64,000 nucleotides of DNA from Saccostrea cucullata. Its lineage: Eukaryota. This document shows positions 15,133 through 64,000 of this stretch, piece by piece. The notes beneath the pieces were generated by a model. That model had not been told where the DNA came from, ran no database searches, and worked only from the letters and a program-made list of their open reading frames with translations. Position 1 is the first letter of the stretch, and each line of letters starts with the position of its first letter. A program made the translations under genes and the position numbers. The DNA is taken from assembly GCF_032062105.1 (NCBI RefSeq), contig NW_026932328.1, positions 372,001-436,000 of the forward strand, given 5' to 3'.

Positions 15133-16087
15133 CTTTTTAATGATACCTATTTAATATTATGTGTTACATCATATTGTTTTAATCCCCCTTAAAATCCTCC
15201 TCCTTGTTCTGACTGAAAAAATATTAGATTCAACAAATATTAATTCATAAATAACTATTTAGAGTGACCCGTGAAATTTTTAATACAATCTGCAATGGAT
15301 ACAGGCACTTCAGTGACCCATGTCACCCGGTACGTAAAGTTACTAGTATACATGCATAGTGGTATGTCCGCCGGATTTACCTAATTTCTCTTGAATTTTA
15401 ATCAGTCTACTTGGCTAGATTCTCTACAAATGTAAAACTTCTTCACTATTAAATGTTTACTCTCATTCTTTATAAATGTTAAAAACAATGGAAGATTATT
15501 AAAAGACTTAAGTTGTGGACGAAATATCACAAACGCATTGACAATATAAAATAATGCACCAGAAAATCCTTCATTGACCTAGTCACTGAAATAAATGTTT
15601 CTAAAATTAAAAAACAACAAGTCAGTTGGTATATATATGCAATTAAACTTTTAAAGGGAGCATAATCCACTTAAAAAGAAAAATATTTAAACAGGAATTA
15701 TCGCAGCAAGAGAATATATGAATTCCTGTTCTTTTATTAGAACTTCGTTCTACTTGGACTGGTTGTTTTGCCATTTTAACAAAAAGAAAAGATAAGATTA
15801 TGTGTTTTTTTTCTGTTTGCATTTTGTGTGAACTAAATAGGTAATACGTTTAAATAACGTGTCAGTTGTTTTGTCATTTGGAAGGATAATTCACAATCGC
15901 TATGGAAGTGGGCACTTTCACTGTGACATTCCGCATTAAAAGTAACTGAACCTAACAACCAGAGAACAGGTAAACTTCTACAGCTCCTTTTTTCTAGTTA
16001 TCAACCTAAATGATTCAATTACGTCATAGTTAATTTAGAACAATCATATACATAATACATATAAAATTTTACTGGATTTCAGTTAGA

Positions 16088-16957: not shown

Positions 16958-18889
16958 GTATTTTAATATAAATTTTAGTATATACGAAAAATTATTATAT
17001 CATTGTTTGTTTATTGTCTGAGAATTGTTGCTATTATATTTTTTATATAGACAAAGCATATAAGAGAAATTGCAATGAAAATGGAATTGAAGGTATTGAT
17101 CTGGACATTTTCAACTTCTAGTACTGGTGTTGAAAATAATTGGAAGGTGCGTAACACCTCATTTTTTGTTAAATATCATTAAAACCATTAAATATATATC
17201 ATCTGTTGATACAGTGCATTATGTCATATAGAACATCTACAACGCATAGCACTGGGTCCTTTTTGTTTGCAACAAAGGATTTCTATTCAAAACTCCTTGT
17301 TGTCACCCCCTTTACAAACACTTGTTTCTTTTGTAACCAATGGCGGAATCGCACTAGTTAGAATCTATAGAACTGTTAAATTACTAACATTGTTAACAAA
17401 TTATTTCTTTAAAAACCAAATAATAAGATGCTTAAACAATGCACATGTACATTCATTCCTTAAGGATGACGTTTACTCAGGTTTCAGAAAACAGAAAGGA
17501 AATTTTACAAAATAAAATATATTTAATCAAAAAATTGTTTTAAATAGTCAAAATAACTAAGTTTTAGTTCAATATCAAGTTAAAAATTTAATATTTTATT
17601 ATTTGAAGAAAATATACAGGAACAAAAGTCAATGTAGGGTAATGCAGAGGAAAATCGGACTAAATTTTTAATTTTTCATAATTTGTCAAAATCTTTTATT
17701 TCTTGCAATATTAATCACAATGTAAAGGTTACATGTATTTTTAGACATCATTTCGCAAATATTATATGTGTTAAAACTCATAAGTTATTTCAAATACCAG
17801 TAATTGAATGCTATAAAATAAAGAAATTCAAAAATATGAACAAAAACCATTCCAGAAAACATATCTCAATAATTTGATCATTCACCCCATGAGAATAAGG
17901 GCAACAAAAATAGCTTGAGGCTATAAATAATTCAGAGTTCTTATCATTCAGATTTTTGTAATATTCGATTAAAAATGAGGAAAAAATATAAATATGACAG
18001 AGGGAATTCGGACTGTAATAATCATCAAGTTTATGGTCCAAACTCAAATCGTTTCTTTATATGAAGCAACGCTGTTCCATGGCTACAATATTTTATTATT
18101 TAAAGAGTTTTGTTGCTTGTAATATTTTGCGAGTGAAGAAAAAAATGGTCATAGTGTGAAAAATTGAGGTGTTTCCCGAGAAATACTCAGGTGCCACTAG
18201 AATGAATTGTAGGTCATTGACCTAGTTAATTGAAGCTGAAATTTAACACAAGGTTTATAGATTTACAATGTACAGTAGGTGGGTTTTCGTTCTTATCAGT
18301 GGAATTTTTAGTCATCTGAGTAAAGGTATACCTTAACATAACCATAGGCAACATGGGTTCATTCCAACTCGAGAGACAGCATAATATACACTGCAAGAGG
18401 ACACTCGAATTTCATAACATAACAATAAATGTTTGCTAGTTATAAATCAGAATACGCGTATATAAACTTGAAATTTTAATGAAATAAAGCTAGAGGACTT
18501 ACAGAAGTTTTAAGTCAGACCAAGAGGATCTAGAGGGAAATACTTTGCAATATTTTCATACCGCAGTATAAATATAAAATTTTTGCAAGGGCTTTCGTTT
18601 GAAAAACATTACAAAAGGATTTTCTTTAAATTAAATAAATTGCATTCATTTCGATAACTGAGATAAAAAGTTATTTTAAAAAGTTCGTTTTAATTTATTA
18701 ATATTAATAAAAATGTAACTCGAAAATTTACTTACATTGTCATTTTGCAAATTTATTTTGTTAAAAAAAATATTATGATAGTACACAATTAAAAGAACTC
18801 TGAAGATGATATTAAAAAGATGCTCTAGTTTCTAGTTGACAATATCTATGTGGTTTTGGAGACCAGGTCTTCCAACAATCTACTGGAAA

Positions 18890-25798: not shown

Positions 25799-28700
25799 TC
25801 AAACTGAATGAAATAGATAATTTAAAATAAGGGATGTCAACGAACATTCAAATATTCATTCGGTGAGTTCTTATTCGAAAAGGACATTATGATTCGAATA
25901 TTCGTTTTTTTTTAAAAGTATACATGCATTTAAAAGAGAAACAGATAGAATCAGCATATAATTTAAAACAAAATTAATTGATACTACTCTTGACTAAGTT
26001 AAATGTTCAATTCAGGTTAAAACAGTATGAAAAAACATGGAGCACAGAAATGCATTTACCTGCGTTATCATCCACTACTTTAGCATAAACATTTTCTTGT
26101 CTGTAATTGTCAAGTTCATCATACTGGGATCTGTGAATGTAATATATATCTATATTTTTATCAAAAGATTAACTCAAACATGTAATATTAATCATTATTT
26201 CTTTATTTTATGTATGCGTTTTTATTCGCTTACCTTGAGGTTTGCTCTTGATCCTCTTGATGAACACCTTCTAAAACAAAGGAAATAATCATGCTTTTAT
26301 AGCATTAAATACAGGATAGATTTTTTGGTTTCTTCAAAATGTTAAGAGCTATCATTTCTGAAATTAACATGTTTTTCTCACAAGAAACAAATACTTTATT
26401 AACCACCTGTTCCTTTGGCGACGTCCAGATAATGATGGCCTTCTTCCTGAGTTATATCCTCCATCACATAGTCTGGATTTTTACTAGAATAGTTTACTTT
26501 ATAAGTTGGCCCTGAATTAAAGTGTAAAAGTTTTAACATGCATTCTCTGTAAGCACCAAAAAATTTACTATAGGGCTTGGAAACGACATATCTCCAATTT
26601 TGATGAAATTTGCACCACAGGTGTACCTTGGCACAAAACCAGCATATATGGTGTCAGAAGTTTCCCACGTGCACCTGGTTGCCATGGTGACGGATCCATT
26701 GAATTTGGCCATTTTCGGCCATTTTTGACCAAACAAATACATGAAAATTTAGGAAATATGAATGCATTTTTGTCTTTACGTAGTAGACTCAAATATAAAT
26801 CTTTGTATCATAAGAAAACATCAACTTTAAAGGAATACACGGCATATAATCAGTTATTTCAGAATTAACCCACTCTTAGAAAATGGTCCTGCAAAATGGC
26901 ATGGTTTCTAAAAATGTGAGAAATGGAAAATTTGGCATTTTTTGATAAATTTAAGGTTAAATAAAAAAAATTGTCTACGGAAATTTTTCAAATCTTATGC
27001 ATGTCGTCAAACATCAGTATAAGAAGTGTCTCCTCATGAAAAAATCGGAGTGGGATCTCAAGGCTATTTTTAGTAACATGTATCTAAAAATAGACATATT
27101 TCAGAAAAATCCAAAAAATGAAATTTTGGCAGAGTTTATGATGGCATTGCTAGGTAATTATGATATATACTGTAAAAGTCAATATGCCAATGCCAGAGAC
27201 TGGACACCAATAACTAAAACGCATATTATTTTCAGGGATTTCCGTTTTCTATTTATAGCTTCAAAGGTCTAAATATAGACATGTCTCATAAAATGCTGAA
27301 AAATGTCAATTTCCCATCATTTTGAAGCTTCACCAAGTCTTAAATAATAAACATACGGATCTCTCCAATATTCCATCAATAAGGACAAGGAATACTTTAA
27401 TAACTCACAAATTATTGAGGACAGGCTCTCATATCTATAAATAGTACAAATGTCTAAAAATAGACACATGTGAAGTTAACTGTTTAATGACGATTTTCCA
27501 TTAATTCTCAAATTAGAGATGAACAATTTACCCACTCAGTGTCATTAACTGCAACTGGCATAATGTGACTGACAATAACAGACGAACATTCAATGGAATG
27601 CAGCATGATAAGCAGAGGTTTCCATTTCTATTTATAGTAACACATGTTTAAAAATAGACATAATGCAAAATTTTGGATTAATGTAGTTTTTAGTACTTTT
27701 TTCTCAAAATTATGATGAACAATTGAAGACCATTTGTTTTTTAAAAACTGCTATTGGCATATGGTGACCAACAAGTAAAAGAAAGTATTATATGAAATAT
27801 AGAATGAGAAGCAGAGGTTTCCATTTCTATTTATAGTAACACATGTTCAAAACTAGACATGCTGCAAATTCGCTAGAAAATGTAGACTTTCGCTCTTTTT
27901 TCTAATATTTTGGGTGGACAATGTGCAAACGAGTGATTTTTATTTGTTATTGACAGAAGGTGACTAAAGAATATGAAATAGATTTAGCTAAAATGTATAA
28001 GAAGAATGTTTAATGGTATTTTTCCATTTCTATTTATAGTAACACATATTTATAAATAATCAGGAAGATTTAGAATCGTTCTTTTTTCTTATATTAGGGA
28101 TAGGGAATTTGCAATCAAACTTTCATTAGCTGTAACTGACATGGCTCATTGTATACGGCGCGCCAGCATGTCCATCTCATTACAATATCACAAAAGTATG
28201 TTCTCCCTGCATTAAAACACTCAAATGACAGCGATTATTATAATTCAAGCATTATTGCTTAAATTCAAGTCGACAGCCTGTGCCCAATAGCATTTTGTTT
28301 GTTAGGTGGATCCAGAAAAATTTTCCTTAGGAGGTGGTTGCTCATATCACAACGGTAAGAGGTCTGAGGCATAGCTTTAGTTAGATCATTACGTCAGTTT
28401 AAGTGAAAGTTGAATATTCAAGGGATCCCGGATTCCCATTTGATCCATGCATGCCTTACCACAATTTGTTCAAGAGTAATCCGAAATTTTCCCCAATGTT
28501 TTGAGTTGGCCCACTTTCGATTTCTCTCTCTCTGTACGTACATGAATATATTTCTCCAGACTTTAAATATATCATTGAAAAATATTAAGTGCTTTGGTAT
28601 TTATAAATTTTTTTTTACATATAAACATCCATGTAGGAGTTGGAACCTGGGGGGGGGGGGGCGGCTCACAAAAATAGACATCATATAGGTATAAACATTG

Positions 28701-31700: not shown

Positions 31701-34700
31701 ATTAACTTGTCTTTATGAGAGGATGGACATTTACTTTAGTTACAGAAATGGCTTTTCTAATAATAGGCCTTAAAAACAAAATTTTGGTCAGAAATATCAA
31801 TTTATTGATTGATTGTGTGTTGCTTAACGTCCCTCTCGAGAATTTTTCACTCATATGGAGACGCCACCACTTGCCGGTAGAGGGCTACAAATTTTGTCCT
31901 ATGTTCGCACTTAGGGCCTTTGAGCAGTGAGGGATCTTTTTCATGCCAGCACCTCCTGCGACACGGGGCCTCGGTTTATACAGTCTATTGAAAAATCAAA
32001 CAGAGAAAAAGTCTTATCCCTTCATCTAAGGATACTTTGCGGCAAGTTTAGTTGAAATTAACACAGTGGTTCTTGATAAAAGATGAAAATGTTAAAAGTT
32101 TCCAACGAGAACGACAACGACTGACAACGCACAAATGATCATAAAAGCTCACATGAGCCTTTATTTTAAAACATGTGTTACTAGAAATAGAAATGGAAAC
32201 CCACATTATTATATATTTCGGTTACTGCTCTCTTGTACGTGTCGGTTACATTATGTTAGTTACAGCTAATGAAAGTTTTACTGCAATTTCCTATCCCTAA
32301 TTTGAGAAAATAGAACGATTCTACATTTTCTTGATTAATTGCTGAATGTCTATTTATAGATATACGTTACTATAGGTAAAAATGGAAAAATACCCTTAAA
32401 CATTATTCTTTTACATTTTAGCCAAAGTTTTCTCATATTCGTTAGTCACCTTCTGTCAATAACAAATAAAAATCACTTCTCTGCAAATTGTCCATCCCAA
32501 ATGTTAGAAAAAAAGTGCGAAAGTCTACATTTTCTCGAGAATTTGCAGTATGTCTATTTTCAAACATGTGTTATTATGAATAGAAATGGAAACCTCTGCT
32601 TCTAATTCTGTTTTTCATATAATGCTTTTTTTTACTTGTCAGTTACCAGTTAAAAACTTATTGTCTGCAATTGTTCATCCAAAATGTGAGAAAAAAGTAG
32701 TAAAAACTTCTTTTTTTCCGTTATTTTGCAGTACGTTTATTTTTATATATGTGTTACTATAAATAGAAATGGACACCTCTGCCTATCATTCTGTATTTCA
32801 TATAATGCTTTCTTTTACTTGTTGGTCACCATAAGGCAATAGCAGTTAAAAACATATAGTCTGCAATTGTTCATCCAAAATATGAGAAAAAAGTAATAAA
32901 AACTACATTTTCCCTATATTTTGCAGTACGTCTATTTTTAAACATGTGTTACTATAAATAGAAATGGAAACCTCTGCTTCTCATTCTATATTTCATATAA
33001 TGCTTTCTTTAACTTGTTGGCCACCATAAGCCAATAGCAGTTTAAAACATATAGTCTGCAATTGTTCATCTAAAATATAAGAAAAAAGTACTAAAAACTA
33101 CATTTTTCCGATATTTTGCAATACGTCTATTTTTAAACATGTGTCACTATAAATAGAAATGGAGACCTCTGCTTATCATGCTGCATTCCATTGAATGTTC
33201 GTCTGTTCTTGTCAGTCACATTATGTCAGTTGCAGTAAATGACACTAAGTGGGTAAATTGTTCATCTCTAATTTGAGAATTAATGGGAAATCGTCATTAA
33301 ACAGTTAATTTCACAATTGTCTATTTTTAGACCTTTGTACTATTTATAGATATGAGAGCCTGTCCTCAATAATTTGTGAGTTATCAAAGTATTCCTTGTT
33401 CTTATTGATGAAATATTGGAGAGATCCGTATGTTTATTATTCAAGACTCGGTGAAGCTTCAAAATGATGGAAAATTGACATTTTTCAGCATTTTATGAGA
33501 CATGTGTATATTTAGACATTTGAAGCTATAAATAAAAAACGGAAATCCCTGAAAACAATATGCGTTTTAGTTATTGGTGTCCAGTCTCTGGCATTGGCAT
33601 ATTGACTTTTACAGTAGACATCATAATTACCTAGCAATGACATCATAAACTCTGCCAAAATTTCATTTTTTGGATTTTTCTGAAATATGTCTATTTTTAG
33701 ATACATGTTACTAAAAATAGCCTTGAGATCCCACTCCAATTTTTTCATGAGGGGACACTACTAATACTGACGTTTGACGACATACATAAGATTTGAAAAA
33801 TTTCCGTAGACAATTTTTTTAAATTAACCTTAAATTTATCAAAAAATTCCAAATTTTCCATTTCTCACATTTTCAGAAACTATGCCATTTTGCAGGACCA
33901 TTTTCTAAGAGTGGGGTTAATTCTGTAATAACTGATTATATGCCGTGTATTCCTTAAAAGTTGATGTTTTCTTATGATACAAAGATTTATATTTGAGTTT
34001 ACTACGTAAAGATAAAAATGCATTCATATTTTCTAAATTTTCATGTATTTGTTTGGTCAAAAATGGCCGAAAATGGCCAAATTCAATGGATCCGTCTCCA
34101 TGGCAACCAGATGCACGTGGGAAACTTCTGACACCATATATGCTGGTTTTGTTCCAAGGTGCACCTGTGGTGCAAATTTCATCAAAATCGGAGATATGTC
34201 GTTTCCAAGATTTTTTGGTGCTTACAGAGAATGCATGTTAAAAGTGATCACGAAACATACATGTTTTCCGTTACTTAAACATCTTTCTCCACACAGCTTA
34301 CACCTAAAATAGATCTAATGTATTTTTTATAAACATCGAAGTTTAGTCGTGCTATTATAAGAGTTTTCCATGTTTTACGCCTCTTTTGTAAAAAAAAATA
34401 TATATACATCGTTATGATAGACCTATTCAATATAAACCGAATAATAAACCTTCCAATTCTAAAACTTACGGCTTACAAAATAATTTTTCCTTTAAAACTT
34501 ACAATTTTATACACTTTCTGAAATAACACATTTAGAAATATATACATGTATAAAAGAGAAAGAAAGTAAGCTACAGATAAAATATTTTTATCTGGGTATG
34601 CTTTACCTCTATTTTGAAGACACTTTCTGGTGATGATAAATGTCATCAGACATATGCAGGTCAAAAGGAAAATTCCAAAGAGCGAGCCAAACACAGAAGC

Positions 34701-37700
34701 AAGAGATGCAGATTCTATATTCAAAAGTTGTCAAGATAGTGGTTTATACATCAAAATTAGTCTTCAAGTATGAATAAGAAATAGATGTACATGTAAACAG
34801 AATTAATAAGGAAATCTCAAGTTGATATCTCAGAGAATCTTCTGGACACATTAAAAACAGTTTCAGTCAAATTGGAGAGCACATATGTGTGCACTCCATT
34901 GATTTTTAAGATATATTTTATGAAGCAAAAGTACCAAAATTTTAAGAAATGTAATATTCACATGCATGGCAATGAAAGCGTAGCAGGAAAAATACTGACC
35001 TTTATCCAAATTTCTTATTGAACAAGTGTCTTGTACAGGAACAGATTCTCCGTATTTATTCACAGCAATAAGAGTAAATGTATAAAATTGATTTTCCAAA
35101 TTAGGAATAATAGTACTGATTCCCGATATAAGAGAGGTATTCATTTGAGGACCAGTGACTGTTTTGTGTGATAATGTGAAAGTTTGTGCTACTCCGCCGT
35201 CAGATCCTGGAATCCAACTAATAAAAGCCATCCCCTCTATTGAGCAAAGAAGGGACATATTTTGTGGTGCATCTGGTACGCCTGGAATATATAATATTAA
35301 ATATATATATATTTTTTACTTTTATTATTAATACTGTTCCATTTATCTTAAAAAAAAGAACTATTAACATTTAAAGAAAATACATTTACCTTCTGGGATA
35401 ATGAGAACTGTAGTGAGGAAGGATCCATGGTCATTGCTAACATTTGCTGTATAATAACCAAACTCGTCTGTTTGAAGGGAATTCTTTTTATAACTAACAG
35501 AAAATGTTGAGATGTTTGCTGCTGTTGTCATATTTGTGTTCCAGAAATTACTGGCTATATACTTTTCTGCTGAAGTACTAGATTTCCTAAAAGTCCATTG
35601 GATGGAAGGTACTGGGTATGCTAAATACTTCGCCGAAAATACAAGCTTATTTGATGACATTTGTTGGAAGAATTGTCCATTTAGAGATCTTGGTTTACCT
35701 TTAAAATTGTTGTTGAAATAAAGATAATTAACAGAAAGATCGTATGAAAAGAAAACAAATAAAAGAAAACATGCTTTTAATTATTTCCCTTCCATGTAAT
35801 AATTTATGAGACTCAGAATTTATTCACTGGACAATTGAAACTTAAGTCTTAAGTGTTTCATCGGAACTATTATTAAAATTATTACCTGGTCCAACTATTA
35901 AACTACCGGTAGTAAATTACAAGTTATTTCAAATTAAGTGATTCCCCTACATACATCTTACGTATAACTCCACTGGAGTAGATTCTGAGATTCCTATAAC
36001 ATTCTTAGCCAAGCATATATAAACTGCCGTCTGGAAACACTGAGCTGAGTTTTCTGTAAAATTCAGAATGAATACACCCTGTCCTCTGCTGACAACCTCG
36101 CTGGTGTTTACATTCTGTATGGTTATGTTGGTAGATCTAGGACTGTTTACAATACAGTACATTACGAACCGAGATAGTTCACTCACGACGTGTCCACCAA
36201 CTATAGTAAAATTCTCTATTTCAGGACTATCTGAAACAATTCATGAAACACACAAACAATTCCTACAATGGTAATTTCTCATACATTTTCTTGAAATTAA
36301 AATATGATTCAAATCTTTTTAAGCATATAAAATTTAGTAAGTTATTTTCAAGGTTTGAGAGAAAAAAACATTTGATTAAATTATCGGTAGTACTTGAATT
36401 AAATGATATCACAACAACGTTTGCTACTTTGTGACGTTGTTAGCCATAATTCAAACATATACATGTATTTAAGTCTACAATTAATAAAAAAAGATTCCAT
36501 TCTATCTTTATTCAGTTCAGGAGCATCCACACAACGACAGGGGTTTTGAGTCCACTCGTGGCCGTTAGATTCCCGAAAAACTTTCCGCGGACATGCTTAC
36601 CTAAATTAGAAACTCATCCATTGGGCGTTTTCATAGACTGGTAGGTTGTAAGAATTTGACAGTTAAATGTACATATCATATTTTTGTTTGTCTAAAAGAG
36701 ATTTATTTTGGATGATTCATTGATAAGCAAAATAGATTAGAATTAGTAATTTTTCAAAAGATTTGTACAAACGTCAGGAACCTATAAGTTGTAAGGATGG
36801 CTGAATAGATTTTGAAATAACCTATAACCATATACTTACACATTCTTTCTTATATCCTCTAAAAAAGGATCTTGAAAATCATAGTTTCTTGTCTTTTTCA
36901 ATAGAAATATGATTGACATTGACCCAGTAGAGCTAATAAAACAAGAGCCCCGTAGGCCATAACGCTCAACTTAATCCTTTTGGTCACTTTAGTTCTTCAT
37001 CAGCAGAATTTTCTGTTATATATCTCTTTGGAAAACTTAAAAGCTTTTAGTGGCAACACCACGTCACTATATATACCTGTACAGCTGTATATACTTCTGT
37101 ATTACACGTTATATGATAAATCACGCCTCTGCCATTATACAGAAGATTTTAAAGACTTGAATGCTATGTATTCCTATGGGTATCTTTGATCACTTATTAT
37201 AACCTCATCTTACCCACAGAGGTTATCTTTGAAAATTCTTCGCTTTCTGTACATGCTTTTATATAAATACATGTAAATGTTGTTCTTTAGAAAAATATTT
37301 TTCTATATATTAAAACTTATACTGACCAAGCCTAAAGCCATAAGTTTAATTTCAAAAGTTTTTCTGTACTAGTATAATAATTGTTTTCGTTTTATTTTTT
37401 TATTTAATTATTTCGATTTTTATTTTCTTATTTTGTTGTTTTTTTTCGTTTTGGTTTGTATAGTTGGGCTTCAATACTCCTGAACAAGTGGTTCTTGAGA
37501 GGTCGAAAATGTGAAAAAGATAAATACGAACGTACATGAACCTCTTCGATTAAGAAAGCTCATCTGAACCTTTGGTTTAGACGAATGTTATTTTAGTTTG
37601 ATTTTAATATATTTCGAAAAATGTAAAGAAAAAAAAGTTTCTGAGTGAATATTTGTAATACTGGTACATACATACGACTTCCACATTAATAGTAGATGGT

Positions 37701-39030
37701 ATTGATGTCCCAACGGCGTTACCAACGGTACACTGGAAAGTCCCTTGGTCGGACTTACGCACACTAGAAATGGTGTAGGTCTGACTAGTGCTGATTTGAT
37801 TGCCTCCTTTAGTCCATCTGTAGTTTAATCCTGTGCTTGGGTTTGCATCATCAACGAAGCACTTTAACTGAAGATTGCTGTCACCCAGTTTTGCAACAAC
37901 GTTTGTTGATGGTGTGACGTAGATTTCCGGCACATCTTTAAAAGCAATGGCCAAAAATATACTTAGTAAATATGTTTACTGAAAGCTAAGCACAGAAACA
38001 CTTACCCTAACCCACATACAGAGAGAGAGAGGGTAAGGAAAAGAGAGAATTAATCTAATTACCAGACATTAAGCTAATGTTAAAATCTTACACAAAACAT
38101 TTAATACTTCCTCGTCACTTGGGTCGGAGAATAATCCTCTCTCTTCTTTGGCTGTACACTGAATTGTTGTCCCTTTATCTTGTTTTTTAACTTTGTTAAT
38201 CATCAAAATACTACCTCCGTCTCCTGTAATTCTGAAGCGAGAGTGTGTGATGTTAGCGTTATTCACGGTCCAGATATAGGTGATAGGCAGACTCGTGAGT
38301 GGAACTGATGTGGACATAGCTGAACAGGTCAAGTTCTGCACAGTGTTCGAGATGATTTCACTATTCACATTAATAGTAGGTTTACTTGGAGGAGCTGATT
38401 GAAATTAATACATTACTTTCTCAAATGTCTGTAAGTTGTGCATGACAGTGTTGTATTGTAAATTTTATTTGACATAAAGAATATTGTTTCTTTTTTGATC
38501 TGCATTGTGAAAAAAAAATATGAAAAAAACTTACTCATGACGAACAGCGTATTATTCGTTATGACTGAGCTTATCGATAATTGTGCAAAGTATACTCCAG
38601 CATCAGTTGTGTTAACATAGTTGGTAAAACAGATATATACTCGGTTTTTTGATGTTTCCACATTACATGTTACCCTTCCTCTGTAGTCAACATTGATGTC
38701 TATAAATGGATCAGAGTCAGGAATGCCAGCGAGAGTACATATAGTTAAATTGTTGAAACTTAAAAATATTACAAAATCTTCTGGTATGCTTCGAGACATT
38801 GAAATATTCAGACATCCTGGAGAGCCTTCTTTAACATAGGCAGGTTCCTGTAATTCGGCTGTAAAATAAATTGTATTTATGGAAACAATTATATACATTG
38901 CAAAAATTACGTCCAGGAATTTATCTTATAACATATTATACATGCTATAAGCATACTTGCCTTCACTGATATATATATGCAGATAGAAAATGAAATTCCA
39001 AATGAGAATTAATAGGCATTGCACCTCCAT
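25799..39030 (-). CDS. Type I membrane receptor: signal peptide, 5 Ig, FN3, TM, Tyr-rich cytoplasmic tail (717 aa)
   Basis: Twelve exons sum to 2154 nt in frame: 39030-38961 (signal peptide, GC donor), 38858-38535, 38394-38092, 37935-37672, 36230-35955, 35698-35390 (Ig, phase 1-1), 35281-35000 (FN3: ISWIPGSDGG...YTFTLIAVNKYGES), 34714-34607 (TM), 26511-26407, 26270-26234, 26130-26060, 25803-25799. Confidence 0.8.
29030..30340 (-). repeat. Tandem array (~170 bp units) of a Helentron-type element nested in the foldback element
   Basis: Units 'aagtaggtcactgtgacctacttttt...aagatgcatcaactgacaaagtttgatgattct' recur about 6-7 times. Confidence 0.6.
31800..31985 (-). mobile_element. tRNA-derived SINE, 3' part
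   Basis: Reverse complement of the core and tail of the SINE at 40170-40452 (gtctccatatgagtgaaaaattctcgagagggacgtt...caatcaatc). Confidence 0.7.
36939..37590 (-). mobile_element. Degenerate Helentron-type element in a receptor intron
   Basis: Ends 'aacaagagccccgtaggcc' and 'aaagctcatctgaacctttggtt' resemble the 19692-20906 family in reverse orientation. Confidence 0.5.
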
Positions 39031-39299: not shown

Positions 39300-39830
39300 T
39301 TCAAACAATACAAATCATGAGCAGAGCAATCGTGGGATTCTAAAACATCAGAGGTTGGATCATGTGCCATGGAGAAGTGATCATCCTCTCCTGACTGGTC
39401 ACATCCGCCGTGGGCTCCTTGTTTGATCGGGAATATAAGGAAAAATCCGTTCACAATGTCGTAAATACTCAGTAATGGCCTGGCAATTACATGTACATGT
39501 AGTTTAATTGAAAACGTCCATCAGCATTTGACATAATGATAGATTGTATTCGCTGACGAAGTCATTGTATTGGCCTTAGAATTTGCATAATGATGACTTA
39601 AAACACAATTATCTTGTTTGACGATTACCTACCTCGTTTTTAGGAATTGCTCATATGTTGAGCATACTCTTGCGTATCGAATCAAGTGAGATATATAATC
39701 TCCGTATGCAGGTGATGAACGTATATTGCTGCAAAAGTAAGGAAAGTAGACGACTGAAAATTTCAAAAAGTCATCATGTTTATCACAAAGCTGTGTTAAT
39801 AGATTACCATTAACGTCTCTTTTTCTAGTA
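39300..39830 (-). mobile_element. Penelope-like retroelement relic (RT C-terminus and 3' region)
   Basis: Translates ...LCDKHDDF.KFSVVYFPYFCSNIRSSPAYGDYISHLIRYARVCSTY, the C-terminal RT motif of Penelope-like elements; truncated. Confidence 0.7.
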
Positions 39831-40169
39831 AAATAAAAATGTCCAAACATAAAGCCTTTATTATGTAGCTTAAACATCTCCCATTGATTTATATTTAATA
39901 TTTCAATCAAATAACTCAATTTAATATGATTAAGAGTTTTTCAGTATCGGTATTTAAATTTAGTGTATGTATATTTAATATCGCATCTATCAAATGACCC
40001 GTCCAAGAGTTACTAGTATGATTCGCTTGTTTGAGGTTTCATTGACGGTAATACGTACTAGATCTACATTAGTTTTTAATAATTGAATTTTGTGTGAAAA
40101 TAAAAATTTCTTACCTAGCTGCTACGTAATATCTATCATAAATTTCTCTTGCTGGGTTGATGTCGCCTG

Positions 40170-48439: not shown

Positions 48440-49054
48440 AAGTCCACAAAACGATACAAAACAGGAGCAGAGCAAACACGGACCTCCAAAACATCAGAGG
48501 TGGGATCAGGTGCCATGGAGGAGTGAGCATCACCTGCCGACCGGTCACACCCACAGTGCGGTCCTTGTAATGATCGGGAAATAGCGAAAAAAATTCCCCG
48601 TCAATTCAGTGTATAAATAATGGACTAACAATTAGTATGAAAAACGTCAGTCAGCATTTGATTTAATGATAAATTGTATTTGCTGACAGGGTCATTGTAT
48701 CGACCATAGAACTTACAAAATGATGACTTTAAACGAGATTTCTGATATTCTTGTCTCATCAAATTTACCTCGTTTTGGAAAATGTTCATACGTAGAGCAT
48801 ACTCTTGCGTATTGAATCAACTGAGATACATAAACCCCATATGCAGGTGATGAAGGTGTATTGCTGCATAAGTAAGAGAAGTTAACGATAGAAAAGTCAA
48901 AGTCATCACGTTTATCATAGAGCTTGGTTGTTAGATTATCATTAATGTCTTTTTCAAGTAAAATATCCAAATATGAAACAGATGTGTCAGACTTTGTGGT
49001 ATCTTTTATTTCAAGCTCACCAGGATATATTGTTTTGACATAAGAAATAACCAA
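48440..49054 (-). mobile_element. Penelope-like retroelement relic
   Basis: ORF 48713-49054 reads IYPGELEIKDTT...SYLDILL...TKLYDKRDDFDFSIVNFSYLCSNTPSSPAYGVYVSQLIQYARVC, followed by the family 3' region. Confidence 0.8.
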
Positions 49055-51829
49055 TACATGTATACTAGTATTTAGTAAGAATACATTAATCTTTTAAGGT
49101 AGTTCCATCCTCACAATTTTTATAGTTCAAAGTACAAAACTGCATTTATTTTCATTTAATGTAGTTTACATTTACCAATTATTGCAAAAAAGATATGCGT
49201 TTCCATATTATTTAAGATGAGAGACATATATAAACAGAGGTATAGGTCAAAATAAAAAAAAATCGTATATTTTTTGGTAAACATTATTATTAAAATCATG
49301 TAAAAACTGGTTCAAATGCATAATTCTAATGTGGAGAGTTCAAAAATACTTTCTACTTATAAGAAACTTTTGAATATCAGGGGCACGATCTTACTTTAGA
49401 AATACAATAAAGAATGAAGATACTTTAGAAGGAGTTATTGCCCTTGTCAGCATTTTTAAAGATTGAATTATTGATTACATGTAAAATAAAAAAATATACA
49501 TTGTTTTCAATTCTCTTCTTAAAGAATATTTATCATCACACCTATTAAAAGCATTTCCAAAAGACATTGTTCTATTGGATACAGTTTTTGCAAAAACCTA
49601 CGACATCATACTAGGATGGAAATATCTTAAATAAAGAATGAATGCAACATTTATTTTAATATCAAAATAGCATAGAAAATTTAAACTTTTAATTGATTTT
49701 TTGTGATTATAATCAGCAAACTAAAGTTCTTAAAAAACTGGAAACCTAATAATGAATAAGACCTTTGGTTTTTGGAGGGACTCATCTTGAAAAAACGACG
49801 AGTTTAAATTAATTAAAATAAATGTCCAACTTTATTAAGTTATTGTTATTAAATTGTTTTTTAACAGAAGAAAGCATGATCACTGAAGAAAATGAGATTA
49901 TGTTGAGTTTCCTAGTGAAGAGGATAGTACTTATTGATTGTAAGCTATGGTGTATAAATTCATTTCATTTGTGTTACTCTGTTTATATAAATAGAGTGAC
50001 ATATTTACAATACTTGAAATGATTAAATGTATATAAAATTGTCCCCACATAGTAAAGTTTCAGATGTGTTCAGTTCATGGCTGTATGGAATATGATGTGA
50101 AAATTCGGAATTTTTTAGATTATGAAGCATACTAGATATATGTACATATAGTTGTTATTATTTCTAAATTAACCAAATTATTATTTTTTGTCAATATTTT
50201 ATAGCAACATGTTCTATTAAGCAATACACCACAAGGAGTTTAATTTTCATTTGAAGAAGCCTTATATTTATTATATTCATAAGCATAATTTAATACTTTT
50301 GCAGATCACATCAACAATGAAAGGATTCAAGATCTTGCTGCCCTTGTGTAACACTCAGGTCAAAACGTTACCTAAAACATAAAAACAATGCTTATTGAGT
50401 ACAATTTATCATATTTTAGTATTTTTATTCCATAGTTTATAAGTTTGTTATATATGTGCATGTGGTCATTACATCGCCATTTATGAATTTACATTTTTTT
50501 TCTCTAGACATAAAGCGACAGATTACCAAATAATTGAGTAAGATGAAAATGGATAATCATCAAACTGTTCGATGTTATTTGTTTATAAGTTAATTAGGAA
50601 TATTGTAATGCATTCTCTCATAAAATTTAATGTAACAACATCTGAGGACTGCAGGAGTTATTCTCCTTGATGCTTATTTTCATTGAAAAAACAAATCAAA
50701 AAGATTTTTATCAAATGAATCTATAGTGCGTTAACATTTTATTTACAAATTACAGCTAAATAACTTAATATAATTTTTATTGTAAGCAGTGGAATTAATC
50801 TTTAAAGTAAGAACATGATGTACATATGAAATTGGCTTTGTGTGGGTAATGTATATACGTTTACATGTATTTTTTGTTATGGAAATTTCACAATCAAACA
50901 TTCCTTTCCATAAATAATATAATTTAGACAATATTTTATACTGAATAATCACAAAAGTATTGGGCAGCCTTAGTTAGTTTATCAATTCTTTACTTAGATG
51001 TTTAGAATATAAAAATCATAGGCATCAACATGTACAAGGCATGTATATTTTTATTAATATAAATTATTTGACTTACTATAAAAGTATATGAAATGTTTGA
51101 ACCAATCTGAATCAAATATTAAATGGATGAATTGTTTGTGGTGGGTTTTTTTTACATACAATTTTGCCTTGCTGAAATGCTCTTTATCTTAAAGAAAACT
51201 ATATTAAAGAAAAGTTCATAGAAATGCATAATTTGTGATGGAATGTAAATTGTAAATATTTTCTTTTCAATTTCTCAGAATTATTAACTTACAATAATTT
51301 TTTTTATTTTGTGGCAGTCATTGTTCACGGTCAAACAAAATTTTACTTGTTCGTGGGACGTCATTTATATACTTGTTTGATAGATTCAATGATTCAATAA
51401 GTTTATAAATTGAACGTGTGTGGGGATGTGAATTCAAAGGTAAGTGTGACACATACCCATAAACATTCCGTCCACTCATTACTTCATAAGGAATATTCAA
51501 GTGGTCGTGCAGTTGATTTGCCTGATTCATGTCAATGGGAAATGAAGATTCCATTGACAAATATAAGATCATATTATAGCCCTTTGGCTCACTGATGCTT
51601 GTATCATACATTTTGGTTTTTTGTTGGATAGTTATTAGTAACTGATATTTATAATCATGCATTTTGAATGCTAGGTGTCATTGAGTAAAAAAGATTTTTA
51701 AGAAGTAATACATGTATTTATTTCAAAATAAACCTAACCTCTCATTCCCTTTTACCAATAGATACTTAAATACAAATTTAGGTTAACTGTTCTAAAGAAG
51801 AAGCTTAATTTTATACGTGGAGATAACAG

Positions 51830-56260: not shown

Positions 56261-59200
56261 ATAGTTCTATGTTTCCTCTCCTTACAATCAGTATTATTTT
56301 GACCTGATTACTGTTCATTACTATAATGCTCTAAGCTTTCTTTTTTTTTTGGGGGGGGGGGGGGTTAAAAGACACAGAAATCATAATTATATATTATTCT
56401 AGAAAATTATGTAGTCAATAAATTTCTTTACAATTTCTTCCAATTCTCAAACTTTTTTGTATTAAATACACATGTACATAGCAAACTTTTATTTTACTCA
56501 GATATGAACGATATAAAGGGTGTTAAGAAAGTTCATTCCACATTTTTTCTTCTATTTTCGAAAAGAAATACGATGTGAAGTTATTGACAATTTGTTATAT
56601 TTTATGTTTACAGGTCCATTCTTGCTACTGATAAGGTTTAAACTGTCTTTGATAAGAAGAGGGCAGATATTAAAACAGATGATGTCTGTACAGAGAAATT
56701 AGGTATGACGCATATTTGTGACATATATATTTAGCATACAGGTCAAAACATCCTTTCAAATACCATGCAAAAACTATCAAGTCGGTGAAAAATTTTAAAA
56801 TGACAAACTTATTCTTTTTAAAAGTGATCTATGGTTCGTATACCTACACTTATCAGCTTGTCTGCTGCAAGATAAGCTATGAAAAAACAAAAGTAAATTA
56901 TCCTTTACTTTCACTCAAAATGACCAGCATTTCTATCATTCGGGTGCTATAAAGATTTCATATATATTTTCATATGGAAGAAAAAGTCCTATAATTTCCT
57001 GCTAGAAATGAATTGCTATAAATCTAAAGCACACTCTTGCGATTTTGTCAGACTTGAAAATTCATCTCTTTTATTAAGCACTACTTTGAAATTTTTGAAA
57101 ATATTTCATCATGGAACGAACTTTTTTAACACCCCTTTGTATAGTTTAATTTTTTATCACTGTTAATGCCAGATTTTGTGTGTGAAAGGGAGTCAAAAAA
57201 CGCATTTGTGATAATTAAGCTGAAATTTCAAGCATTCGGCCATTTCATTCATGAAAAGGAAATGTCAGCGTAAGATTTATTACCCTCCTGGCCCGTGTAC
57301 TGAACGACACCTTGTTAAATTACTTAATACATGGTTACCATAGCTTCATCAGACGATTCAGAATACCCCGTCATTCAATAAGTAGGAGTCACTTTCAAAA
57401 AAATAAATAAAATTAAAATGTATAGGTAAAATACAAGTTTTGATTACTAATTGCTTGAAACTGTTAATAATAGTTATCGGTTTGTGTATTATTACTACAT
57501 GTACTACATTCGGTCACACAATCTGAATATAATATATCCGCCTGTGGCTTTTACGGTAGAGAAAAAAACATAATAATTATGTCAATAGCTGGATATTCTA
57601 ACAAGAAAAAAAACACATATGACCTAGTTGTCCTCCAAACCATTTTTTGTTTATGTTTTGAACACCTTGCATTGAGAACTTTTTAAACTCTTCAAAACAG
57701 ACTCCATGCAGTAAACAACCCATCATGTACAACTCAAGAATATCTTAAACAAAGCAATCTTGGCTCTAATATAATAACATTGAGTCATTTGGAGGGACAA
57801 ACCGAGGAGTGCCTGACCTGAAAAGTTCGTTGACCCAATTGCCCCGCATAAAAACAACCCAGTAAAACTCTATATATTTGAGAAAAATTGTAGACTCGTC
57901 ATAGACATTTACTCACGCAGAGAAAACACATCGGTAAGTTTGATTGCTTGTCATGTCACGTTGGCTTAAGAAGGTATTTCATTCTTAAAACTGAGAGTCA
58001 GTGAGGTACATTCGTCCTTTATCTTTTACCTTTGGAAAATAAATGTTTCATTTTACCTTTAGATTTTTTAGAATAAAAGGTCATTGAAAGAGAATTAAAA
58101 CGCGAAATAAAAAAGATTATAAAAGAGAAATTCTCCCCTGTAAGAATATTTATTATTAATAAAATTTTTAAGTATTTGTCTTTTAAAACATTTTGATATT
58201 TTTTAAAAATGTTAAACCATGAAACACTTGAAAAAAATATCTTTTAAGAAGAAATCTGTTTTCAAATTCTGATGATGAAATGAGAATGTTTTAAATATTT
58301 GAATAAATAAAATCTTGCATCATGCTTTACAAAGACAAAACTGAATAAATTAAAAAGAGGACTTTTTACTTTAAAAATTATTGAAATATACATATATGTA
58401 CAAAATGCAAAGATTAAAATAACTTTTGTTTTGGTTTTTTTTTTAGATTAATCACTGTTCGTTATCTTCATACTATTTATATGTACATGTATTCGATTTA
58501 GTTTTGGAAAGGACATGATTAAATATTTGTACACAAAATTTTATTAATTTACTAAAGACCTTTTTCAAAAAAAGAAAAAAAAAAAAAGATTGAACACATT
58601 GCAATATTTTTTCTTTTTGCACAATATAATTACAAAATAGTTCTTTTTTTATGTTTCAACTTGTATACTTAATAAATGTTCAAGGCACATGTTGTATTCA
58701 GCAAAAAGGCATCCTGTTATAGACGGTTGACTATTAATTTACCACATTTTTTCTCACCAAGTCAATGAACTAAACATACACAACCTCAGGGGTGCTATTG
58801 GGATAAACACACATAAACAACATTGCGATGTCAGGCAATTCAAACAAGCCATGTATTCATTATTCATAAAAATCTCGTAAATCTAAATACTTATCAGTGG
58901 TTTTCTAGAATATTTCTTCTCTAAAGCAATTGCTAGTAATGTCAATTTCAAAGAGCTTTAACTTTCCAACAAACAACAACAAAAACGCATCTTCCTAAGA
59001 GAGTAATTTAAAATTCTGGCCTTTCCTCAATAACAAGGTTCAGCTTTCTGGGGCATTGTCCGTAGAGTTCATTGACCTGATTACCGAGCATGAACGGATA
59101 CTATTAACATGTAAATGTTTCATAAAGGAATTCATTGTCGGAGCACATTAAATATATTGGACTAAAAAAGATAAACTGAACTATTTCTTTTTTCAAAGCA

Positions 59201-59787
59201 ATTTTTATACATCAGTTAAGCATTGTTAAAAAACAAACGTAACAGTATATTTCTTGTTAACAACCCCTTTATGCATGTTTCATCAATAAAACCAAAGTAT
59301 ACACAAAAGGATTCTATTTTTAACTATTAAAATTTTATATTTATACTAAAATGAATCAATAGAGATAAACTTAGACGGCACGTGCGTGAACCCTTTCGGG
59401 GACCTCGTCCGTAAGGTTATTGGCCTGATTGCTGCGCACAAAACAGAGTAACTGCGCAAAATAACAATTTATTCTAAAACTGTGTAACGCGTTGCCTTCA
59501 TTCTCAAACTCAGAGGCAAATCATACACTTCGGTAAGTTTTCACAGCATAAGTTTAGTTGCCTCTTTTATTTCAAATTTTCCACTTTTAAACTTAAATGA
59601 CGATTAATATTATGCAATTAATAATCACATTTAAATAGTTGTAGTTTTCAAATGTTTTAGATATATAAATTTTAGTTTGCGTGTTGTTTAAAGTTGTATG
59701 AACATTTCCCCCCAAAAACTATCTCTGGCAAAATTGTTTCTTAAAATATAAAATGTAAAAAAATAAATAAAAAGGTAAGAAAAAAGC

Positions 59788-59900
59788 ATTTCTAGGAGCG
59801 TTAAAAAATTTCTAGAACCTTCTAGATTGGAAGGCTATAAAATTTCTAGAAACTTCTGGATTGGAAAGATCTCTCGAATCTTCTAGAAATTCTAGAAAAA
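59788..59900. promoter_or_regulatory. Cluster of heat-shock-element-like nGAAn inverted repeats
   Basis: TTCtaGAAccTTCtaGAt (59810-), TTCtaGAAacTTCtgGAt and GAAtcTTCtaGAA all fall within ~110 bp, ~1.1 kb upstream of the LEA-like ATG. Confidence 0.55.
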
Positions 59901-60955
59901 TGATGTAAAGGGACTTAATTCTGCATGCTCTTCAAGTTTACGACTCGCCTAAGAATATACATGGGGTTGAATTTCTTAAAAGAAAAAGGGAAGAACAAAA
60001 ATTAAATTAAATATATATATTTTATTGAAATATTTTTTTCCCTTTTATCATGTTGAAAATAAATATTAGTTTTCTTTTTTAAAATTTTACTGTGAATTAT
60101 AAACATTGATTATTAATTCAAATTATATCAATAAGTAATGAATAATATTTAACATATGGGAAATAACTGAAGAAAGTCACACATCTATTCCACGGGCAAA
60201 AATTGTGTTACTTGCAACACGTTAAACAACAATTTAACAAAGAATTTGGGACTTTTTTTCTTTTAATTTTGAGATAAAGTTAAGAAATATTTTAGTGAAT
60301 TAAAAAAACAGAGAAAAATATATCGTTGTTTTCGAATAAATATCTGATATCAAATGTGCACCGCTTTAATCGATAACTGATCTAAGCAATACAACCCAGT
60401 GACACAAAAAATGAAGCTTTCGTAACATGTTATTCTTTCTTCCCATTGGCTATGAATAATCAAACCTTAATTGTGATTGGCTGAATTTTGGCGCTTTGCA
60501 AAACATGTGTTGTACACAATACACGAGTAGAATACAGTACAAACAAACAAAGAAATTCGACTAAGGTTAAAGTAATAAAATCCCCGCGTTTTGCATCTAG
60601 GTTATCAACCAGCTTTTAAGTGTCACGTGTTTTTTTTAGTGCCAATGGACTAATATTTAATATCTACATCACCTTGACATTTTTTAATGAAAAAAAAAAA
60701 CGTAAATACAACAGAATCAGAAGAATAAAACAGGCACATTTTAATGTTTTCAAAACTACATGTATGATATAATAATTATGAACTTAAAAGTACTTAGGCA
60801 TATATTTCCTATTTCTGTTATTTGCCACGTCTATATGTCATCATATTAATAGCTTATGTTGTTTACATATATACGTATTTAATAAGCAGAGACCTTAGAA
60901 TATTTAATAAAATATTTTAAAATGATACATTTCTTACACAGAGTAGTTAACAGAG

Positions 60956-62829
60956 ATGGCTGACAATAGCAAAGATCAGAAGGTGCGTATATTGCATTCG
61001 GTAGTTACACGTAAAATATGTAATTTGTTTAAAGTAATCAGGCCGAATCACAATTAATTTGTACAACATGTACCATACATGGACACAAATATTTTGAAAG
61101 TTTATCTTTTTAAGAAGTGAGAGTAAAAATGTATTGAGAAAATGACTTTGTTTCCTACATTTCTTTTATGTCAGATAGCAAATGTACTAAACATGAACAT
61201 TGTATGTAACGTGCGTATTTTTAACTGAAATATTTTTTAATTATATATGTAAAGGAACATCAGAATAAATAACATTTTATTATAACTTGTAGCCCGGAGT
61301 CTTGGGCAATGTATCTGAGAAACTTCAGGACGTCGGTCACACTGTACAAGAAAAGTTAGAGCACGCAGGACAAGTCATCTCAGATGAATATAACAAAAGA
61401 ATGGTAAGCAGTCATGTAAATTGTATTTACAAATATTTTCAAAAGAAGTGTGTTTACAGGTCACAAAAGTATAAAACCTGTGAAATTTCAAAGAACGAAG
61501 TAATAACAGCAATTATTCTCAAAAATGCATTTAAACCCTAAACTATTGAGTCGAGAAAACTCTTACCTCAAAAAACAGCAGAAATGAAATCAAATTCCTT
61601 GAAGGAGTAAGCTGTCATATCAAGTTTGTCGTATCCACCATGGTTTGTTAGGGTGAACGACAAATCCATAGTCAATTCAATATATAGAAATTATGGCCTA
61701 CCAGAAATACATGTAGACTTAGTTGTGAAAGGATATTTCCAAGTGAATCTGTCAAACTGTTTACATTCAGCATATAAGGCAATATATTGGGTTCTAAAAG
61801 ATCTCCTTTACTCTTTTAGCATCCTGAACAGCAAGAAAAGGACAAATCTAAGGTCGAAGGTTGGTTTTAATGGCAAATTATATTCCTTGTGATTAAAAGT
61901 TATTCTGCATTTCTGAGTCGAATTTTGGCCAAGCTAGTCATAGGAATAAACAGTAAGAAAAATATTTACAGTATAAAGAGATAAATCATTTAATTTTTTC
62001 AAATGATCTTCTCAGAAATAAAAGATACAGTTAAAGAAAAGGCAGATGCTGCCGGAAATAAAGTCTCAGAGGAATGGAACAAGCGAATGGTAAGCTACTC
62101 CTCTTGGGGCAGGAAACAAGTTTTAGAAAGAGTCCAAATTATCTGTTAGATGACTGAGTGTAAACAATTTGACAGATACATAGAAAATATATTTTGCCAA
62201 AAGAAAATTCTTTTTCTAAAAAGGGTTTTTACCTGTTGGTCTTTCTCCACCAATTCCCTTAAGAGGCTAGCAAAAGTATAATGTGGAAAATTTTAAGTTC
62301 AAGTTCAATAATAATGAAACCACAAAAATTAAAAACAAAATAATTATACTTTTTTTTCAGTTAGAGTAGAATTATAACTATGATTTAATTCATACAGAAT
62401 CTTGAAAAAGTAATTTTTTTTATTTTAGCATCCTGAAGAGGAGAAAGAGGAGAAATCAAAAACAGAAGGTATGGTTTAGACTCTAACAAATACAAAAAAA
62501 GTATGATTCTTTGTTGTTATCTATAATAATAGTTACTTTCGGTCATATGTATTAAATTTTGAATCTTCGATTTATAGAGGTAAAAGACGCAGTTAAGGAA
62601 AAAGTAGAGGCTGCAAAAGATAAAGCAGAGGAGGTGAAAGACAAGGCTTCAGAGGAGTTGAACAAAAAAATGGTAAGATGGTGGTTTACAGTCAAAGGCT
62701 TCTGTCACACCAAATGATGAAAACAGACTTTTTAAGAAATTATACTCTTGTTTCAAAAAATGAAAACCATATGATTAATTAATACAATAACCTCTTTTTG
62801 TTTTATAGGGTTCAGATGAAAAGAAATAA
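60956..62829 (+). CDS. Small hydrophilic LEA(group 3)-like repeat protein, 135 aa
   Basis: Exons 60956-60982, 61293-61403, 61820-61859, 62016-62089, 62429-62468, 62578-62672 and 62809-62829 are all GT-AG and in frame (408 nt). Translation: MADNSKDQKPGVLGNVSEKLQDVGHTVQEKLEHAGQVISDEYNKRMHPEQQEKDKSKVEEIKDTVKEKADAAGNKVSEEWNKRMHPEEEKEEKSKTEEVKDAVKEKVEAAKDKAEEVKDKASEELNKKMGSDEKK. Confidence 0.8.
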
Positions 62830-64000
62830 AAAGGGATGATTTTACCCTATTTTGAGGGTATCCAGAGTAGTTCATTCAATCAGGGACTTTTTCTCTCTAT
62901 CCTGGACTCTTCAGGCATTAGTTGATATTAGTCTGTATACCTCAAGCTACTCAATACCGGTATATTTATGTGTATGAGTTCGTTTATTTGTATTCTTAAT
63001 ATATTGCTTGAATGTCAGATGTTAAGGATGTATGAAAAAAAATTATATGATTTTGGTTTTTTTTATGTTTTATAACTTAATAAAACTAATAAAGCAACTT
63101 GAAGATGAGTTTGGTTTTTTTTTATATAAGGAGAATATGTGTTGCCCTGAAAATGATGGAAATCAGTTTTGTAAAACATGGGAAGTCTTCAAACTATTTA
63201 TTGGTAGATGTATATGTATGCCATGACTTGGATTTTATCACTCATTTGTTTTCTCATAGCAGTATGAAATGTTAATTATAGGTATAACCGATGATGATTT
63301 TAATGATGAAAAAAGAATAGGTTTATAAACTTATGTTATTTCTTTAGAAAGAAAAAATACTTACAAATGGAAGCCAGCTCTATGACTTGTTGAAGCCAAA
63401 TTACATCATTGCAATCTCACAATGTTGCACATTTCCTAATACAAAATAAAATGCCTGAGTGACATAAAATACATGTATATATATATGTATTCTTACTATA
63501 TATAATTATATGATATTGCTCATCATGTATATATCATTTGCTCAATACATGCAGAAAACGTTAACAGCAATTTACAATTAAGTCATGTTTATTTAATTAA
63601 GATAAGTACGTTTAACTGCATAGATTTTATTGTCATTCAGAGTTTCACAATAATAGAATTTAAGGTGACAAAATATGTACAGATTAACAAGGATTGTTAC
63701 AGAAGGGTGGAAATTTGAACATCATAGAAAGGTTACTATGTATAAAACATGTTTAGTCTTATAATCAAAATATACCGGGTATTTTTAGATCAGCTTTATG
63801 TGTATGACCTCGGGTGTTTTTTACCTTCCATGAAATGAATTTGCTTTGAAGTTATGCTAACAACAGGTCAAGTTGCACATAGTGACTCTTACTAAAAGCA
63901 ACAACCCATTAAAGAGTATGATTAATTGTGCTTATTTAAAGGCCTGGTCGAAGAAAAATGATTCAACAAAGTTAAGAATTTTAGAACTCTTGACCTTGGC

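Follow-up and report, generated by a model that had tools for sequence, protein, structure and literature searches.

A small gene of Saccostrea cucullata (60956-62829 of the 64-kb window, the whole stretch of DNA analysed here) is matched in RNA by short mRNAs without exons 3 and 4 besides the long form, and an intronic inverted repeat brackets these two exons; both observations are new. The product is a small, acidic and hydrophilic protein. We propose, at about even confidence for and against, that it is an Hsp12/group 3 LEA-like protector of membranes, controlled by heat shock factor (HSF) and acting under heat or emersion. How is the gene built? It has seven coding exons (60956-62829), with AG/GT borders throughout, which together make 408 nt or 135 aa:

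60942-60982, plus strand: exon 1, coding from the ATG at 60956 (60956-60982, 27 nt); joined to exon 2 in an RNA contig of run X3 that runs from 60941.
61293-61403, 111 nt, plus strand: exon 2, amphipathic module 1, made of three 11-mers (RNA joints, translation).
61820-61859, 40 nt, plus strand: exon 3, proline linker, forming a cassette with exon 4 (RNA joints).
62016-62089, 74 nt, plus strand: exon 4, amphipathic module 2, forming a cassette with exon 3 (RNA joints, helical wheel).
62429-62468, 40 nt, plus strand: exon 5, proline linker; it contains a 9-nt tandem pair and measures 31 nt in the RNA runs.
62578-62672, 95 nt, plus strand: exon 6, amphipathic module 3, equal to module 2 plus 7 residues (RNA joints, alignment).
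62809-63120, plus strand: exon 7, coding over 62809-62829 (21 nt including the TAA at 62827-62829), that is, the last six codons, then the 3' UTR.

The 3' UTR carries AATAAA at 63079 and 63088, and RNA contigs end at 63099 (run X3) and 63121 (run X7). At the other end, an in-frame stop lies 12 nt 5' of the ATG, and the N-terminus is therefore without a signal or targeting peptide; it is hydrophilic, and the signal peptide that is a trait of exchangeable apolipoproteins is absent. A preliminary description of this DNA had proposed that the gene arose by exon-pair duplication, and the exon comparison agrees: exons 3 and 5, borders included, are 73% alike, exons 4 and 6 can be aligned, and exons 2, 4 and 6 resemble one another at their ends (83%). 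The gene therefore grew by duplicating a linker exon together with a helix exon. Exon 6 corresponds to exon 4 with a 21-nt (7-residue) insertion. The introns of the duplicated pairs no longer align, except for a marginal match between introns 4 and 6 (2/300), and the 64-kb window holds no paralogue of the gene. As the same description had said, each pair keeps the frame (40+74 = 114 nt; 40+95 = 135 nt). Its statement that the two linker exons are identical in length, at 40 nt, is true of the window; exon 5 measures 31 nt in all four RNA runs, which is the window version minus one unit of the 9-nt tandem pair at 62436/62445, so that the equal lengths are a trait of the window haplotype. The linker is shorter still in the protein of Magallana gigas.

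The gene is transcribed and spliced. The RNA evidence consists of assembled contigs from four of eight listed runs, belonging to three studies, over the region 60300-63400, about 95% identical to the window, which indicates a close relative and not the same stock. All six junctions are present in these contigs: exon 1-exon 2 in one of the four runs, exon 2-3, 3-4, 4-5 and 6-7 in three each, and exon 5-6 in all four. Depth is 0 or 2-5 in introns and 13-1600 in exons. In every run, and thus in all three studies, the end of exon 2 is also joined directly to exon 5; this short mRNA drops exons 3 and 4 in frame and would encode 97 aa on the window sequence. The contigs with the short joint have rough depths of 32, 17, 1162 and 424, against 0, 23, 1183 and 595 for the exon 2-exon 3 joint; run X5 has the short joint only, and the other three runs have the long and the short form. 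Both exon pairs had been put forward as skippable cassettes: the pair 3+4 is indeed lost in four of four runs, and loss of the pair 5+6 is not among the joints listed. The cassette 61820-62089 is, at 114 nt, a multiple of three, is stop-free and has an ATG at its end, and back-splicing would turn it into a reading frame without end; the joints listed, from assembled contigs that cannot show absence, include no back-splice joint of it.

What could take exons 3 and 4 out of the message? The two arms of the inverted repeat lie on either side of them:

61733-61777 (core 61747-61770), plus strand: 5' arm, in intron 2, 50 nt before exon 3.
62146-62190 (core 62154-62177), plus strand: 3' arm, in intron 4, 65 nt after exon 4.

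In the core, 22 of 24 positions are complementary, with a duplex energy of -37.7 kcal/mol. The score of 46 exceeds the null maximum of 33 (0/1000 shuffles) and is the best among 21 intron pairs; there is no further copy of the repeat in the 64-kb window, and pairing between introns 4 and 5 is marginal (33 vs 32, 0/200). Both predicted structures have the region closed off by the repeat (z -2.4), which encloses precisely the exon pair 3+4. It is likely that this repeat acts as a loop-out switch for the two exons. According to a catalogue of exon loop-out in human genes (PMC8052449), looped-out exons are included less. The oyster gene is like such cases of long-range intronic base pairing in having complementary intron segments around a frame-preserving cassette that some of the mRNA lacks, and differs in that its cassette is a duplicated exon pair which sets the repeat number.

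Is the short mRNA then a product of splicing? We think alternative splicing its probable origin. The competing explanation, which we hold possible and clearly the less probable of the two, is a genomic allele or paralogue without exons 3 and 4, born of unequal crossover or hairpin-driven deletion. Deletion can also be promoted by an inverted repeat, run X5 shows the short joint alone, the long and short forms occur at similar contig depth in the other three runs, as in a heterozygote, and run X7 contains two haplotypes of intron 2. However, the arms stand off from the cassette by 50 and 65 nt, their pairing as RNA includes a G-U wobble, both predicted structures have the region closed by them, and both forms are found together in three runs from three studies, all of which argues for splicing over deletion.

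The protein itself is as rich in K, E, D and A as had been described (K27, E25, D11 and A10, together 54%), with no Cys and no Phe, and the translation confirms that its three modules end in (Y/W/L)NK(R/K)M. With a GRAVY of -1.58, a pI of 5.3 and 48% charged residues, it has the high hydrophilicity typical of hydrophilins, and by charge-hydropathy (0.32 vs 0.43) it lies on the disordered side of the boundary. Hydrophilins have more than 6% Gly, and the long form (4.4%), the short form (5.2%) and the M. gigas protein (5.1%) are all below this threshold; four Hsp12 proteins have 6-13%. High Gly is given as a hydrophilin trait in a section of PMC6054528. The 11-residue period that had been claimed for the repeats holds for exon 2 (best lag 11), whereas exons 4 and 6 show a best lag of 7; the 7-residue period of exon 6 is explained by the 21 nt that it has beyond exon 4. 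All modules are amphipathic, each at p ~0.01, with best helical angles of 92-98 deg. On a helical wheel of 98 deg (11/3), and measured from the apolar axis, the apolar residues of all three modules sit at ~40 deg, their K/R residues at 83-84 deg and their D/E residues at 137-143 deg (0/20000 permutations), placing the lysines at the interface and the acids opposite; helices of yeast-type Hsp12 on the same wheel have K/R at 90 deg and D/E at 155 deg. Charge-hydropathy and helical wheel together bear out the idea of a disordered-type composition with amphipathic repeats. AlphaFold2, run on the single M. gigas sequence, predicts two long helices (pLDDT ~80) with a break at the linker and nothing globular (pTM 0.38), and Foldseek found no fold match to this model. 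NCBIfam gave weak coiled-coil matches only.

To which family does such a protein belong? The preliminary filing under group 3 LEA proteins is not supported, as neither exons 2, 4 and 6, scanned singly, nor five related proteins match LEA_4 (PF02987) at E<=1, and the nearest family is Hsp12. The Pfam scan of exons 2, 4 and 6 returned no LEA, perilipin or apolipoprotein profile match, and Perilipin, Apolipoprotein, ApoLp-III, TPD52 and Synuclein are absent among the eight Pfam families that the M. gigas protein matches at E<=1, under Pfam filters that drop most matches above E 0.1. The 11-mer class rule of group 3 LEA proteins agrees with the protein at 7-8 of 9 positions in seven stretches along the sequence (0/5000 shuffles). 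Unlike group 3 LEA proteins, the oyster protein has no LEA_4 match, carries its repeats in Pro-separated, exon-coded modules and comes from a host that is not anhydrobiotic. The likeness to this group, including the tardigrade protein HeLEA1, lies in the K/E/D/A-rich composition, the 11/3 amphipathic repeats, the basic interface and the acids on the polar face (parts of PMC10808001). The same paper reports that HeLEA1, whose charges are arranged in this way, attaches to anionic vesicles and stabilises them, and that a structure-based search with a true group 3 LEA protein yields Hsp12, apolipophorin III and synuclein, which for Hsp12 speaks against descent as the reason for such likeness.

The best Pfam family of the M. 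gigas protein is HSP9_HSP12 (PF04119; E 2.2e-5, positions 9-50 of 59), whose cut-off of 26.3 bits it misses at 25.3 bits; YtxH and Grg1 come next. A motif common to this protein and yeast Hsp12 led to 29 metagenome loci, 12 of which read as fungal Hsp12, and the seven that were checked are all Pfam members (78-98 bits). From 11 members (one duplicate dropped) a profile was built, which is biased as it was motif-selected; on it the M. gigas protein scores 21.2 bits and the long form of the window 12.2, each beating 2000/2000 plain and 2000/2000 register-keeping shuffles, and the short form scores 5.3 bits, reached by 34/2000 shuffles. None of 120 bacterial 11-mer repeat proteins (6/64 parts scanned) exceeds 8.7 bits on this profile, and none of the top 20 of these controls matches HSP9_HSP12 in Pfam at E<=0.002. 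When only columns beyond the motif are scored, shuffles that keep the apolar pattern give p values of 0.005, 0.018 and 0.17. Is an E-value of this order meaningful? As 11 of the 20 controls cross-match Apolipoprotein below its cut-off, many near E 1e-5, such values are common in this sequence class. In the reciprocal search with the M. gigas query, the 11 Hsp12 proteins rank 14-85 of 131, among controls that were also motif-chosen, and hhalign gave 55% for one control, 53% for the M. gigas protein, 13% for the window long form and 71% for a three-unit oyster profile. The N-terminal head of Hsp12 (positions 1-8) and its TD (34-35) are invariant in 11/11 fungal members; in the oyster proteins they are unaligned or replaced. 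A search of solved structures placed yeast Hsp12 fourth (E 0.4), behind Pumilio and OspA, and was set aside as no evidence alone. The Atlas search had no match at 0.9 or above; what it listed at 0.85-0.88, clusters of Grg1, Hsp12 and LEA, serves as a lead only.

Taken as a whole, the oyster protein resembles Hsp12/Hsp9 (PF04119; 2L9Q, 2LJL, 4AXP) in size, pI (~5.2), helical charge pattern and the order helix, Pro linker, KS, helix, with 11-16 identities to the 11 members over 41 columns. Heat-shock control would be shared too, as judged for the oyster gene from its heat shock elements (HSEs), and amphipathic helices, flexible linkers and the lack of a tertiary fold are shared by prediction only. 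It differs in having no in-register head, no TD, low Gly, 25 bits against 78-98, and exon-coded repeats of 34-38 residues. Passages of PMC3407059 describe Hsp12 as having no obvious homologue outside fungi, as disordered in water and as forming amphipathic helices on micelles; sections of two further papers report that it remodels membranes and limits aggregation (PMC6054528; PMC10423329). A LEA-like metagenome protein with the Pro-linker motif (L010:218-547, plus strand) scores 17.2 bits on HSP9_HSP12. The Pro-linker motif may arise repeatedly in LEA-like proteins, and convergence is somewhat more likely than descent as the source of the Hsp12 likeness. We consider it unlikely that the gene is a true Hsp12 homologue, inherited from an early opisthokont ancestor or acquired from a fungus. 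In that case exon-pair duplication would have turned it into a modular membrane chaperone, HSF and nuclear receptors would control it, and an RNA stem would switch its helix number.

Exon 2 searched with phmmer against 1.84 billion representatives gave 11 hits, of which two are real relatives: an M. gigas protein cluster (A0A8W8L2J0, A0A8W8L067) and unnamed fragments. The only named relative is thus an uncharacterised protein of M. gigas (Ostreidae), 68% identical over exon 2, in keeping with the bivalve origin assigned earlier. Four other matches were set aside as compositional (a tandem array from sturgeon, a protein like a phage tail tape measure and two other repeat proteins), and the remaining five, all long, served as controls only. 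The 96-aa M. gigas protein as query found four proteins among four candidates, all close; with a short query and thin eukaryote coverage, oyster-only matches are not proof of restriction. Word-index protein searches with the exon 2 and exon 6 frames gave no match, and metagenome contigs scanned for oyster-like loci yielded 410 pattern matches and 0 confirmed. UniRef100_A0A8W8L067 (96 aa) and A0A8W8L2J0 (58 aa) share the N-terminus, module 1, the proline linker and module 2 with the window gene, and are its probable orthologue as judged by sequence; they differ in the shorter linker and in the absence of a name and a function. The M. gigas models seem to read into an intron at their end, hence the third module is not seen there, and the gene is probably mis-annotated in them. 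Searches of open-access literature listed no paper on the protein, nor one on a characterised oyster LEA/Hsp12-type protein. Four papers that use PF04119 or similar terms concern fungi, to judge by their titles, and two oyster papers with 'hsp12' mean Hsp70 12A/12B (PMC11817431; 10.1101/460204). LEA-like labels are not unheard of in molluscs, since part of a gastropod transcriptome paper mentions LEA-annotated transcripts in passing (PMC4460706).

How might the gene be controlled? The region upstream of the coding exons contains the following elements:

57815-57939, plus strand: module A, promoter-like, with an IR1-type palindrome at 57824 and TATATAT (TATA-like) near 57872.
58759-58771, no strand assigned: IR1-type palindrome with 1 mismatch, in an inverted copy of module B sequence.
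59040-59095, plus strand: module B, with a perfect IR1-type palindrome at 59066 and without a conserved splice donor.
59405-59538, plus strand: module C, with a degenerate IR1 at 59414; putative non-coding exon ending at 59532 with a GTAAGT donor.
59804-59890, no strand assigned: HSE cluster, probably in intron 1, with all three perfect three-unit HSEs of the 64-kb window (59809-59890).

The cluster is non-random, with seven two-unit sites within 150 nt against at most four in 100 simulated windows; its motifs are candidate HSF binding sites. It probably lies in intron 1 rather than upstream of the transcript, because the four letters that precede the acceptor in the run X3 contig match the exon end at 59532. 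This match is 5-nt evidence and weak, and one other site in the window fits the letters before 60941 in run X3 like 59532 does. Module A, too, contains a putative non-coding first exon (end 57933, GTAAGT donor), and the splice donors in modules A and C suggest alternative first exons. The modules are related: alignment scores are 49 against a null maximum of 33 for A-C and 47 against 37 for B-C, and each pair, including A-B with its narrow margin, gave 0/1000 shuffles. Across 57780-59545, the IR1-type palindrome, which we take to be a nuclear-receptor site (EcR/RXR, FXR/RXR), is kept in the three modules and the inverted fragment while the flanks diverge; literature searches on IR1 gave no paper. 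IR1 sites with at most one mismatch number seven in the window, three of them upstream of the gene; a perfect one at 18211-18223 is distant from it.

Other parts of the window have features of their own. A 1.07-kb element occurs twice in opposite orientation (26531-27600 and 33184-34243, 95% identical) and is probably a pair of mobile elements. On the minus strand, 34470-38925 is a gene of several exons that encodes immunoglobulin domains (Ig_2 E 3e-11, Ig_3) and has, by eye, an apparent fibronectin-type exon and membrane segment; exons at 11511-12759 have a weak PIH1 match (E 7e-4), probably from a PIH1-family co-chaperone gene; and 39629-39940 and 48713-49093 are two related decayed frames, by eye like retroelement fragments. 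The plus-strand open frame of 307 codons at 16034-16957 has no Pfam match, and its 16088-16954 part has no exact database record; it resembles the beta-propeller tail of bivalve TRIM-like genes.

What would the protein do? In the membrane-protector reading, HSF would bind the HSE cluster and raise transcription from the upstream non-coding exons. The free protein would be disordered in the cytosol and, on anionic membranes, would take up two or three amphipathic helices; their small apolar residues would dip into the bilayer, interfacial lysines would sit on the phosphate head groups and the proline linkers would be hinges between modules. Lying on the membrane, the modules would buffer defects of packing, and they may keep proteins from aggregating as well. 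The arms in introns 2 and 4 would pair and loop out exons 3 and 4, giving a 97-aa two-helix form beside the 135-aa three-helix form. Several points count against this reading: Gly is low beside Hsp12 proteins and hydrophilins, the Pfam score lies below the cut-off, the abundant spliced RNA may be constitutive, run X5 with its short form alone also fits a deletion allele, HSE motifs do not by themselves show HSF binding, and helices of this class are also found in apolipoproteins and lipid-droplet proteins that have no stress role.

A rival that we find rather doubtful is a constitutive binder of lipid surfaces (droplets, secretory vesicles, curved membranes) for which stress protection is secondary. 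The amphipathic 11/3 charge pattern is common to such proteins, among them the repeats of perilipin, TPD52, synuclein and apolipophorin III, and in four of four runs spliced RNA is abundant in comparison with intron cover. The HSE cluster, however, points to stress control, there is no signal peptide, and the M. gigas protein matches none of these Pfam families at E<=1 (with filters that drop most matches above 0.1), whereas 11/20 generic controls do cross-match Apolipoprotein. Could soluble proteins, and not membranes, be the main target? A LEA-type molecular shield, or an ion and water buffer, during emersion, in line with the preliminary description, is favoured by the seven stretches that fit the 11-mer class rule at >=7/9 (0/5000 shuffles), but oyster tissue is not anhydrobiotic, there is no LEA_4 match and lysine at the interface is a lipid-binding design; we judge this reading improbable, even with the lead, and no more than a lead, that the Atlas gives at 0.85 in a cluster of plant LEA proteins, and with Hsp12 itself limiting aggregation, as a section of PMC6054528 states. 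A structural or scaffold coiled coil (muscle, cilia, secretory granules) with an incidental HSE cluster is highly improbable, since the 7-residue period in exon 6 and the long AlphaFold2 helices at pLDDT ~80 are outweighed by best angles of 92-98 deg instead of 103 deg, apolar faces of small Val/Ala, helices broken by Pro and no fold match.

The tolerance of oysters to heat and air exposure is usually discussed in terms of Hsp70-type chaperones. If the membrane-protector reading is true, a small, HSE-bearing, membrane-binding disordered protein would be an effector unlike these chaperones. The protein, which lends itself to expression and assay, stands unnamed and mis-modelled in the Pacific oyster database entries. 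Its gene offers a compact test case for the idea that an RNA stem sets repeat number through exon-pair skipping. Were the doubtful Hsp12 descent true, a family described as fungal would gain its first member from animals, and bivalves a new effector of emersion or heat tolerance.
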